64,000 bases of DNA from a virus. Lineage: Duplodnaviria > Caudoviricetes. The notes under the pieces were generated by a model that was given only the letters and a program-made list of their open reading frames with translations, searched no databases and was not told the origin of the DNA. The DNA lies in the IMG/VR virus record IMGVR_UViG_2905984197_000003, positions 10,435-74,434 of that record; one strand, 5' to 3'. A program made the position numbers and the translations under genes. Shown in pieces: positions 57,814 to 59,529 of this stretch (within the stretch, counting starts at the first letter, position 1; each line of letters starts with the position of its first letter).

Positions 57814-58302
57814 ATGAGCGAAAAAACAAACAACGTAAGTACACTTCCTGATGTTAACCGAAGAATTTTAGAACTGGTTTCAGAAAGAGCTAATGGAAAT
57901 GTTTCAGAATTTTCAAGAATTATAGAGCAGGAACAGCAAAAAGTCGATCGTTTATTCAAGGTTGACAAGCGTACACAAAAGTTCCCGAAACCATCCGATA
58001 GTATACTCGAGTCTATAATTAAAAAATTAGATATTTCTAAAGGCTGGTTATTACTTGGAGTAAGTGAAGGGAATCAATCAGAGGATAGAGATGCAAAATC
58101 CTTCAAATTTCTATCAATAGAAGAAAAGCTTAATTTGCTATACCAGCAAAATTTAGAATTAAAAGAAGAAAATGAAAATATTAAAGACATTTTAGATGAG
58201 ATGTCATTAACTATGGAAATTTCTCTTGCACCAATATTAAGACACTTTAAACTGAAAGTTGACGACAAACAGAGTGCACAAAAAAATAGCTCAATTAGTT
58301 AA
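57814..58302 (+). CDS. CI-like repressor: N-terminal HTH, no S24 peptidase domain
   Basis: NVSEFSRII...QQKVDRL...ISKGWLLLG, then a coiled-coil-like tail; TATATTTG at 57746-57753; divergent from the cro-like gene. Confidence 0.8.
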   Translation: MSEKTNNVSTLPDVNRRILELVSERANGNVSEFSRIIEQEQQKVDRLFKVDKRTQKFPKPSDSILESIIKKLDISKGWLLLGVSEGNQSEDRDAKSFKFLSIEEKLNLLYQQNLELKEENENIKDILDEMSLTMEISLAPILRHFKLKVDDKQSAQKNSSIS

Positions 58303-58543
58303 AGCCTAATTGAGCTATTTTTATACCAAGTCTAAATTTTTGCAAATTTGCTTCTAAAGATATGGATTCTACCAGAATCAATCTCTGCTCATCTGAAAGT
58401 GTTGCGAATCTAACCTGTCTCAGAAGATGATAGTTATTTGAAATATACTCTTCATATTTTATTAAGCCCCTATCAAAAAAGTCTTCATTGCGATAATGTA
58501 GCTGCCGGATAAAATTACGCTGCTCCTTATTTACTTTCTTCAT
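58295..58543 (-). CDS. Small cytoplasmic protein, third gene of the repressor-convergent operon
   Basis: 82 aa; overlaps the membrane-protein gene by 17 nt and the repressor 3' end by 8 nt. Confidence 0.7.
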   Translation of the reverse strand: MKKVNKEQRNFIRQLHYRNEDFFDRGLIKYEEYISNNYHLLRQVRFATLSDEQRLILVESISLEANLQKFRLGIKIAQLGFN

Positions 58544-59039
58544 CGCTTTTCGTTTTTGATATTGAAATTCTTTCTATGGTTCTGAATTGTATTTCATCTT
58601 GAAGTTTCAAGTTTTTCACATATTCCTGCAGTCTATATATAATGTACAATCCTGGTAAAAGCATTATTAAGAACCCTAACCTATGAAACCAATCTGGATC
58701 AATATTAAAACCAAATCGCATAAGTTCATACATTACTAATGAGTATGTAGCTGCGTAAATAGGAAAGAAATAAGTATGAGGATAAGCTTTTAATAATCTT
58801 CCTAAACTTGTAAGAAGTATAGAAACGTATAAACTTTCAATCCAAACATCCGATCGAAGTAAAACTCCCCTCGCGTCAAGAGTTTTATTAAATTCAGGGT
58901 CTATCCATGACCATATATTATCTGTAAACGGAACAAAACCCGATAATATAACTATTATCGAGCCTACTAATTTAATATAAGTAAATCTGTGTTTACCTCC
59001 TAGGCGGAATTGGGACGTTTTTAGGATCTCCTCCTTCAT
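58527..59039 (-). CDS. Four-TM membrane protein with charged C-terminal tail
   Basis: Probable ATG at 59039 (MKEEILK); four hydrophobic segments; start lies inside the upstream gene. Confidence 0.8.
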   Translation of the reverse strand: MKEEILKTSQFRLGGKHRFTYIKLVGSIIVILSGFVPFTDNIWSWIDPEFNKTLDARGVLLRSDVWIESLYVSILLTSLGRLLKAYPHTYFFPIYAATYSLVMYELMRFGFNIDPDWFHRLGFLIMLLPGLYIIYRLQEYVKNLKLQDEIQFRTIERISISKTKSDEESK

Positions 59040-59304
59040 TTGGATCTGGATTTGGGTCTGTTCCGGTTTCTGGGTCAAGCCCACTCCCACTATTTAATGG
59101 TAATGAGTAAGGAGTAATACCAATATTTGTTGTATCACTCTCAATCTTGTTTTGAGAACCCGGAAGGTTATTAATTTTTAGTTTTTTCACATCCAACTTA
59201 TCTGCAGTTGCTGGATTTTCATTTAATTGCTCATCCCTCTCAGGCGAACAAGAAATTACACTCAAAGCGCAAATTGCGCCAATAAATAAGACTTTTGTTT
59301 TCAT
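58993..59304 (-). CDS. Small lipoprotein / propeptide-like protein with Pro-rich C-terminus
   Basis: Probable start MKTKVLF at 59304; SPII signal ..LSVIS-C; disordered body ending DPNPDPNEGGDPKNVPIPPRR. Confidence 0.8.
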   Translation of the reverse strand: MKTKVLFIGAICALSVISCSPERDEQLNENPATADKLDVKKLKINNLPGSQNKIESDTTNIGITPYSLPLNSGSGLDPETGTDPNPDPNEGGDPKNVPIPPRR

Positions 59305-59472
59305 CGAATTATCAATTTTAAATTCGAACAAAAGTACTTATTTGCAAAAACATACGTGTAAAATTCGGCTGCAATATATAAATATTTCAAAAATAAAAGA
59401 ATTATTATTACTGAAAATTTACACTTTCCGTATTTTTACGGATACCCATAAATAGAATTAAACTTGTATTAT

Positions 59473-59529
59473 TACATTTGCGATTACAAATATATAAATA
59501 AAATTAAATTAACGTACCATATACGTTGG
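59473..59529. promoter_or_regulatory. Face-to-face promoter motifs and ACGTA-N5-TACGT operator
   Basis: TACATTTG on plus (59473-59480), TATATTTG on minus (59487-59494), AACGTA-ccata-TACGTT-GG (59511-59529). Confidence 0.65.

Follow-up and report, generated by a model that had tools for sequence, protein, structure and literature searches.

The arbitrium system (AimP–AimR–AimX) and the Rap–Phr/ImmR–ImmA system, known from Bacillus phages and ICEBs1, employ an exported precursor whose extreme C-terminus is the functional part, and these precursors are linked to the control of a non-self-cleaving repressor or lysogeny regulator. Non-cleavable phage repressors are also acted on by small trans-acting anti-repressors, to which SinI–SinR is comparable. 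In RcsF–IgaA and NlpE/CpxP–CpxA, an exported lipoprotein or periplasmic protein reports envelope state to a polytopic inner-membrane protein. Llp of phage T5 and Cor of phi80 are exclusion lipoproteins, and Ltp, Llp, Cor, Sie and Rex are all named as exclusion precedents. Here we analysed a 64,000 nt stretch of a Chryseobacterium prophage (hereafter the window; IMG/VR record IMGVR_UViG_2905984197_000003, positions 10,435 to 74,434), in which three overlapping genes (the triad), encoding a small signal peptidase II (SPII) lipoprotein, a four-helix inner-membrane protein (tm4) and an 82-aa cytoplasmic protein (p82), converge on a repressor gene (rep) whose product lacks an S24 peptidase domain. 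This four-gene cassette is conserved and undescribed, it is found in temperate phages and small chromosomal islands of Flavobacteriales, and its arrangement is far beyond chance. Our preferred reading, held with somewhat less than even confidence, is that the cassette is a repressor-control device with an envelope input, used in place of RecA-dependent S24 self-cleavage.

The closest analogue is RexAB of phage lambda, where RexA, which biases the switch, binds to CI by way of C-terminal domains, with modulation by RexB, an N-in/C-in membrane protein (10.1101/2021.04.19.439022). In both loci a four-transmembrane (TM) N-in/C-in inner-membrane protein and a cytoplasmic partner, here tm4 and p82, are encoded beside a repressor gene, and the RexA–CI contact may have a parallel in the co-variation of p82 with the C-terminus of rep. 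However, RexA has 279 aa and p82 only 82, lambda CI retains its S24 domain, and the triad is convergent with rep, is not co-transcribed with it and includes a third, exported component. Profile comparison by hhalign gave no sign of homology (probability 0.08% between tm4 and RexB, 0.12% between p82 and RexA). As an analogue without homology, RexAB shows that switch control and exclusion can share one system.

With arbitrium the cassette shares a functional C-terminal part of an exported precursor near a non-self-cleaving repressor, but it differs from both arbitrium and Rap–Phr/ImmR–ImmA in having no tetratricopeptide repeat (TPR) receptor or ImmA-type protease. It further differs from arbitrium in that a membrane protein would serve as the receptor, in a Gram-negative host, and in that the peptide has a lipid anchor and is of a type that does not follow repressor specificity. 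Like SinI and the small anti-repressors, p82 is presumed to bind a repressor, in this case an S24-less one; unlike SinI, which resembles SinR, it does not resemble the C-terminus of rep, and it would be co-transcribed with envelope proteins. The envelope-stress relays are comparable only by analogy, in the logic by which a cytoplasmic transcription regulator is controlled; the cassette has no kinase, phosphorelay or homologous part, and its output would be a phage repressor. Ltp of Streptococcus phage TP-J34 is described as a prophage lipoprotein of the lysogeny region (PMC3952083). The cassette lipoprotein resembles Ltp, Llp and Cor in being prophage-encoded in the lysogeny region, but it has no folded domain, a tail of about 12 residues alone is conserved, and it is coupled to tm4, p82 and rep.

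In Bacteroidales prophages, 429 repressors consisting of the N-terminal domain only (NTD-only) are reported against 197 complete ones, and the authors read the NTD-only repressors as a sign of unidentified induction activators (10.64898/2026.06.25.734096). The same source ties mitomycin C induction to complete repressors and describes one isolate in which five NTD-only prophages were not induced by mitomycin C and the sole responder had a complete repressor; prophage Shia of that isolate has a constitutively expressed signal-peptide gene beside the repressor. Induction of prophages with S24-less repressors is an acknowledged gap, acute in Bacteroidota, and for the input device that is missing there the cassette offers a specific, conserved candidate.

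A conserved four-gene cassette in Flavobacteriales

The tm4 query matched 41 of 401 genomes of the Chryseobacterium family, among them 35 of the 135 from the genus and 5 of the 114 from 19 pooled genera; the genomes are related and not independent, and such counts overstate the statistical weight. All four genes were found in 29 of 30 tm4 loci examined (loci are numbered with the prefix L), and the remaining one, L027, is cut by a contig end. Two loci deviate in detail: the exported protein of L027 is without the Cys, and in L022 the tm4 frame is open but has no ATG. The expectation of the first-pass annotation that the triad stands conserved beside an S24-less repressor was thus borne out in this family, and in a looser form in a second family of Flavobacteriales. 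Among database clusters we found 52 for p82, 59 for tm4 and 94 for the lipoprotein, nearly all from Chryseobacterium and all without an annotation name, and a tm4 profile search of 1.84 billion representatives recovered 102 relatives at E<=0.001.

Across the order, two further families also gave tm4 matches, one in 2 of 62 genomes and the other in 1 of 4. In the larger of the two, 26 of 401 genomes matched at E<=0.001 and about 17 at E<1e-6. Outside these families no match was found in the 387 genomes of the class among those searched. The 16 loci of the second family, in which open reading frames (ORFs) were called from ATG with at least 38 aa, carry a looser cassette: 11 have an exported peptide with the tail motif, 9 a small protein immediately behind tm4, 10 a convergent repressor with a helix-turn-helix (HTH), 4-5 all four parts, and one tm4 alone.

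Longer tm4-like proteins (206-216 aa) stand alone among metabolic genes of Flavobacteriaceae chromosomes in L070/L082 and L076. Their surroundings lack a peptide, small protein and repressor, and they could represent a cellular relative of tm4.

The cassette is composed of two pairs. The envelope pair consists of an exported peptide or lipopeptide with a basic, proline-containing C-terminal motif and a non-enzymatic four-helix inner-membrane protein. The AlphaFold2 model of tm4 (predicted local distance difference test, pLDDT, 85) has helices at 18-46, 61-82, 87-108 and 115-169, the fourth extending as a long conserved cytoplasmic C-terminal helix, and the positive-inside charge distribution fits an N-in/C-in topology. 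No conserved catalytic-type residues were found in tm4, in which P37 is invariant and S27, F38 and Y104 are nearly so. The cytoplasmic pair consists of the small p82, modelled by AlphaFold2 as four helices (pLDDT 82.7), and the C-terminal coiled coil of an S24-less, probably Xre-type repressor. Y33 and a C-terminal N are invariant in the 28 aligned p82 sequences.

Searches of Pfam, PHROGs, NCBIfam and PADLOC revealed nothing significant for p82, tm4 or the lipoprotein. PDB sequence profiles gave no match at E<=0.001 for the triad proteins, nor did Foldseek against PDB with the p82 and tm4 models (best E 2.2 and 1.3, respectively); ESM Atlas returned generic helical look-alikes or unnamed Bacteroidota clusters and nothing else. 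Nine of ten proteins tested from the window and island copies had no match at E<=0.1 in PADLOC-DB, and the tenth, the rep of the window, had a single 12.9-bit match (E 0.028) that we took as chance. No TPR or AimR-like family was found in the four proteins, blastn of the locus against GenBank phages gave no match, and no prior description of these genes was found in the literature.

The window rep matched neither Peptidase_S24 (PF00717) nor any HTH family of Pfam. The profile of its family, built from 26 relatives, matched PezA, SinR (the second-best structural match), an immunity repressor, P22 C2 and 434 with E 0.0014-0.33. Within these 26 relatives Pfam recognised HTH_3 in three and bZIP_1 in two, and of ten repressors from other cassette loci seven contained an HTH family.

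All coordinates, overlaps and protein features first noted for this locus were reproduced (Table 1). The lipoprotein and tm4 genes overlap by 47 nt and the tm4 and p82 genes by 17 nt, and the 3′ ends of the convergent p82 and rep by 8 nt. A second in-frame start for tm4, a GTG, is located at 59090, upstream of the ATG. ORF calls were based on ATG starts and length thresholds, by which small genes may be missed.

Table 1. Coordinates of the cassette and of associated features in the window
Feature	Position	Strand	Description
rep (repressor)	57814..58302	+	162 aa; divergent from early operon
rep domains			N-terminal HTH domain, probably Xre-type, with a WLLLG motif at its end; coiled-coil-like domain at the C-terminus; S24 peptidase absent
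p82	58295..58543	-	82-aa cytoplasmic four-helix protein; last triad gene
tm4	58527..59039	-	170 aa; ATG 59039, stop 58527; inner-membrane, four TM helices
Small SPII lipoprotein	58993..59304	-	103 aa; ATG 59304, stop 58993; lipobox V-I-S-C
Lipoprotein layout			Signal peptide with lipobox; acidic patch behind the Cys; linker variable and of low complexity; tail conserved
Lipoprotein tail EGGDPKNVPIPPRR, codons	58996..59037	-	Dual-coding with first tm4 codons
p91	57307..57582	-	cro position; first gene of early (lytic) operon, divergent from rep
Candidate operators	57647..57682		Two adjacent 17-bp palindromes of TACAAACAnTGTTTGTA type, between rep and early operon
Bacteroidota -7-like box TACTTTTG	59329..59336	-	25 nt upstream of lipoprotein ATG; candidate own triad promoter

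The exported peptide and its tail

Conservation in the lipoprotein (28 sequences) is confined to the signal peptide and lipobox with the following C-S-x-D-R-acidic patch, one Asp in the middle, and the tail. C19, R23, D57 and D93 are nearly invariant, and P94 and P101 are invariant. The tail codons also encode the start of tm4, with position 3 of the lipoprotein frame being position 2 of the tm4 frame. Nucleotide diversity at lipoprotein-frame positions 1/2/3 was 0.09/0.03/0.33 in the first tail group, 0.06/0.00/0.44 in the second and 0.09/0.02/0.37 in the third, and the identity of the tail was 89-94% compared with 56-66% for the overlapping tm4 residues. Since the variation falls at the third position of the lipoprotein frame, the conservation of the tail is not explained by dual coding with tm4. 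The tail is under purifying selection in its own frame and is the selected, functional part of the lipoprotein.

The precursors of the second family are 46-67 aa long and end in a related motif, D..K[IV].[RK]-P-G, with a basic residue followed by Pro-Gly in 10 of 12 tails. Most of them have a lipobox, and a Cys-less signal of the signal peptidase I (SPI) type was found in L079 and L084. In L068 a 50-aa peptide (1915-2064, minus strand, protein P0306) replaces the lipoprotein; its leader ends in KGG and its tail is of the related basic-Pro kind. Four double-glycine models (EntF, ComC, leader_Chryseo and bacteriocin_sig) matched the same residues of this leader, all below their cut-offs. The peptide genes of L068 and L086 do not overlap tm4, and the motif is still kept. 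The importance first assigned to the C-terminal peptide therefore holds, as the peptide is the selected part of the lipoprotein and is retained with another export signal and without gene overlap.

A lipid anchor (the lipobox Cys) was found in 27 of 28 lipoprotein sequences of the Chryseobacterium family, and the peptide is probably lipid-anchored in most loci and periplasmic in two. In the two families, 28 of 28 and 10 of 12 sequences have a tail whose end carries a net positive charge, and for the periplasmic tm4 loops the net charge is negative in 19 of 27 and 23 of 27; these opposite charges would weakly favour docking of the tail on tm4. The patch after the Cys reads C-SPERDEQ in the window copy and C-S(N)DRDEE in most relatives, and is acidic but broken by Arg. 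Surface export of Bacteroidota lipoproteins is reported to depend on lipoprotein export signals (LES) such as C-X-K-(D/E)2-X, SDDDD and SDDFE (PMC5080379). The pattern sought was a polar or basic residue with at least two acidic ones behind it, at +2 to +6 from the lipidated Cys. The patch resembles these published signals but does not match them.

These features bear on whether the system could be arbitrium-like, as the first-pass annotation had suggested, in which case the tail would be cut off, leave the cell and be sensed by the tm4 of neighbours, with lysogeny set through p82. A conserved C-terminal peptide behind a variable spacer is what is found in Phr/AimP propeptides, the leader-like signal of L068 is of the peptide-pheromone kind despite its sub-threshold scores, and the acidic patch recalls the surface-export signal just described. 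Tail and tm4 types also diversify together, but the physical overlap of the two genes makes joint diversification expected anyway. Against release stand the lipid anchor and the absence of a cassette-encoded protease; a peptide of 12-14 residues would also need to pass back through an outer membrane, a cytosolic receptor of the TPR or another kind is missing, and the cassette persists without phage. One tail type was found with five repressor DNA-binding domains, and a phage-specific peptide code is therefore not supported. Lipid anchor, outer-membrane barrier and lack of phage-specific tails together probably argue against a diffusible signal, and we consider an arbitrium-like released quorum peptide very improbable. 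TPR sensor kinases, mentioned as neighbours of such lipoproteins in the first-pass annotation, were found in none of the inspected loci, where the lipoprotein relatives adjoined tm4 in all cases.

The peptide might instead be toxic, with tm4 and p82 as immunity proteins, or the genes might form an addiction module with rep as a mere regulator. The parts list (peptide, four-helix membrane protein, four-helix protein of about 80 aa) is in general terms like that of class II bacteriocin loci, and stand-alone persistence in islands and the leader of L068 would also agree with a toxin. However, a leader of this type is seen in L068 only, and the mature peptides are hydrophilic, rich in proline, glycine and charge, mostly lipid-anchored, and without an amphipathic or hydrophobic core. 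Conservation is limited to the last ~12 residues, no transporter or modification gene is linked, and the PDB comparison of the p82 and tm4 models recovered no bacteriocin immunity protein at E<=0.001. We regard a class II bacteriocin as rejected and a toxic peptide or addiction module in general as highly unlikely.

Two other interpretations of the envelope genes were considered. Fusing the lipoprotein to tm4 by frameshift would take a shift of +1 and give a polytopic protein with an exported lipoprotein attached. A spanin (Rz/Rz1) was rejected, since the lipoprotein gene comes first and tm4 spans the membrane four times without a periplasmic domain; the locus is an immunity region, found also in phage-less islands, and not a lysis cassette.

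p82, the repressor and S24 domains

When each segment of the cassette was clustered at 50% identity, a mosaic of types was obtained. The type of p82 equalled that of the rep C-terminus in 9 of 9 loci (L001-L009), and the tm4 type was discordant with both (combinations A-A, A-B, B-A and C-B). Compared with the window copy, L002 and L003 have 72% identity in tm4 but 22% in the C-terminal half of p82 and 23% in the rep C-terminus; conversely, L006-L008 have 40-44% in tm4, 70-72% in the C-terminal half of p82 and 51-52% in the rep C-terminus. The DNA-binding domain at the N-terminus of rep is freely shuffled, with six N-terminal types on one C-terminal type, and a single tail type was paired with five rep N-terminal and two rep C-terminal types. 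The mosaic indicates three exchange units: peptide plus tm4, p82 plus rep C-terminus, and rep N-terminus. Breakpoints occur at the two adjacent boundaries of genes or domains; between p82 and rep we saw none. By hhalign no similarity was found between p82 and the rep C-terminus (probability 0.65%). The link of the small protein to the repressor that had been proposed for the window was supported in this form, as a co-variation of p82 with the rep C-terminus. The natural swap variants, in which the same membrane pair occurs with different p82/repressor pairs and the reverse, ease tests of cognate against non-cognate combinations.

For comparison with S24 repressors we used 18 prophages with a homologue of p91, the gene in cro position (18 of 201 genomes of the genus). 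Twelve of them have a short rep with the cassette, one in decayed form, and four have a repressor of 232-241 aa with no p82 or tm4 after it; the repressor type of the other two was not settled within the stretch examined. Three of the four long repressors exceeded the Pfam cut-off for Peptidase_S24, and the fourth, of L117, matched HTH_3 only. The N-terminal 57 residues of this L117 repressor are 65% identical to those of the cassette-type rep of L115, so one DNA-binding domain occurs with either C-terminal unit, which points to exchange of the C-terminal unit. S24 was found in none of the 26 relatives of rep and in none of the 10 repressors of other cassette loci. In 123 loci tblastn detected no S24-like sequence adjoining the cassette; the one match, in L044, was to a distinct gene (257 aa) some 1 kb away from rep. 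These sequence comparisons support the view that cassette and S24 C-terminal domain alternate in prophages with the same cro-position gene.

The conservation of the cassette, the selected tail, the coupling of p82 to the rep C-terminus and the alternation with S24 together favour a substitute for S24 that acts on the repressor. In the mechanism we propose, the cassette would stand in for the S24 self-cleavage domain that is activated by RecA. p82 would bind the C-terminal domain of rep as an anti-repressor or co-factor, tm4 would set the availability or activity of p82, and tm4 would in turn read, at its periplasmic face, the exported peptide. A cell-autonomous envelope state would be a more likely cue than a diffusible quorum signal, for example peptide occupancy, degradation, or disturbance by stress or by an incoming phage. 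The same proteins could also exclude other phages, as in lambda RexAB.

A decayed switch region was observed in L118 (G1153:C1:3226074-3229313), with internal stops in p91, a rep of 60 aa, and truncated tm4 and lipoprotein genes.

Chromosomal islands and neighbouring features

The commonest variant in Chryseobacterium has the tail ETIDPTKPDRPK and is accompanied by rep and by a DUF6876 gene in divergent orientation (Pfam E 9e-19). These genes (lipoprotein, tm4, p82-like, rep and DUF6876) form a five-gene island at L031:9595-11560 and also in L036, L040, L041 and L047-L050; some copies hold two DUF6876 paralogues. Nothing was found on DUF6876 in the literature. The islands of L031, L040 and L041 are flanked by a GntR regulator with sugar-utilisation genes and, on the opposite side, by a TonB-dependent receptor with a two-component pair; L036 has the same TonB-receptor side and different left-hand genes. 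Among 16 island loci with about 20 kb of context, lying in several chromosomal settings, a match to a protein of the window phage was found in one only (L042). Median dN/dS (ratio of nonsynonymous to synonymous substitution rates) of the island variant was 0.13 for tm4, 0.12 for p82, 0.21 for rep and 0.48 for the lipoprotein, with dS of 1.2-1.7. Low dN/dS without nearby phage genes indicates that the cassette is maintained without a phage to regulate, and a role tied to the phage, as first assumed, does not cover these copies.

In L067, where the cassette also has a DUF6876 neighbour, two overlapping small genes are located directly upstream (oriented 420-1071). Judged by eye, they may be a toxin-antitoxin pair of the HigB/HigA type.

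The islands, together with the location of the cassette at the prophage end, favour a host-beneficial exclusion function. The triad would then be a superinfection exclusion or abortive infection system of lysogen-expressed envelope proteins plus p82, merely co-inherited with the immunity repressor, that blocks adsorption or DNA entry or kills infected cells. tm4 lies within 0.3-2.9 kb of the contig end in 6 of 6 IMG/VR prophage contigs, which is the usual place of lysogen-expressed exclusion genes in an immunity region, and in L034 an integrase gene is located directly upstream of the lipoprotein gene. The triad has a candidate promoter of its own (Table 1), two of its three proteins are in the envelope, as in exclusion systems, and its low dN/dS in the islands implies a benefit to the host. 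Lysogeny modules of Streptococcus phages are reported to hold lipoproteins of the Ltp type (PMC3952083). On the other hand, in all complete loci of two families the repressor is adjoined by the same cassette, whereas exclusion genes are usually interchangeable cargo; p82 follows the repressor C-terminus and not tm4, the cassette alternates with the S24 domain, and no part of it had an accepted PADLOC model match. Taken together, we judge exclusion somewhat unlikely, though a serious rival to repressor control. If it is an exclusion system, the cassette would be a new module of defence that also exists in chromosomes in domesticated form, and under either reading three unannotated protein families gain a role.

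The points that count for exclusion (prophage-end site, envelope proteins) also count against repressor control, and several others weigh against it. The phage-less islands would fit host-beneficial defence at least as well as switch control, and their sole visible regulatory target is one DUF6876 gene. The evidence for p82–rep binding is co-variation, which could come from tight linkage of the abutting genes alone, and the either/or with S24 may trace to a few historical events among related phages. No copy of the candidate operator palindromes was found upstream of the triad at <=3 mismatches. By our own ORF criteria, complete cassettes are also few in the second family.

A further view is that of a self-contained Gram-negative pathway of peptide ligand and receptor, in which the tail would be displayed or released, tm4 would read it and p82 would relay to the repressor. 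Tail and receptor types would then be pherotype-like, lysogens or infected cells would sense each other or their own envelope, and the phage-less islands would be domesticated listeners. We consider this quite improbable. Readings other than repressor control, exclusion, an arbitrium-like signal and a toxic peptide are unlikely even when taken jointly.

The 17-bp palindromes listed in Table 1 occur in the window as just these two copies at <=3 mismatches. A -7-like box was also found at 57641-57648 for p91. Such boxes number 93 in the window against 89 expected, so that a motif match alone, including that upstream of the triad, is no evidence by itself. The sigma-70 promoter scan gave fewer sites than shuffled sequences and is uninformative for Bacteroidota. 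The 3′ ends of p82 and rep range from an 8-nt overlap to a 12-nt gap in the 27 loci tabulated, so that a terminator would not fit between these convergent genes, and nothing resembling one was detected at 58295-58302 or at the same junction of the 27 loci. Transcripts from the rep and p82 sides must run antisense into each other, and this may be part of the circuit.

The phage genes of the window are almost all on the minus strand, and the early operon continues downstream of p91 with SbcC-like, RecT, NinB and DnaB-like genes. The window ends where its contig ends. No match to tyrosine recombinase (PF00589) was found on this contig, and the integrase and right boundary of the prophage were not located. 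A secreted DUF4468 protein (Pfam E 2.9e-14; phrog_4002 E 1e-25) is encoded at 59543-60085 on the plus strand, divergent from the triad; homologues adjoin the cassette also in L005, L010/L035 and L011, making it a recurrent neighbour at the prophage end. ARAGORN detected one tRNA-Tyr with the unusual anticodon ATA inside the prophage, at 42822-42892 on the minus strand.

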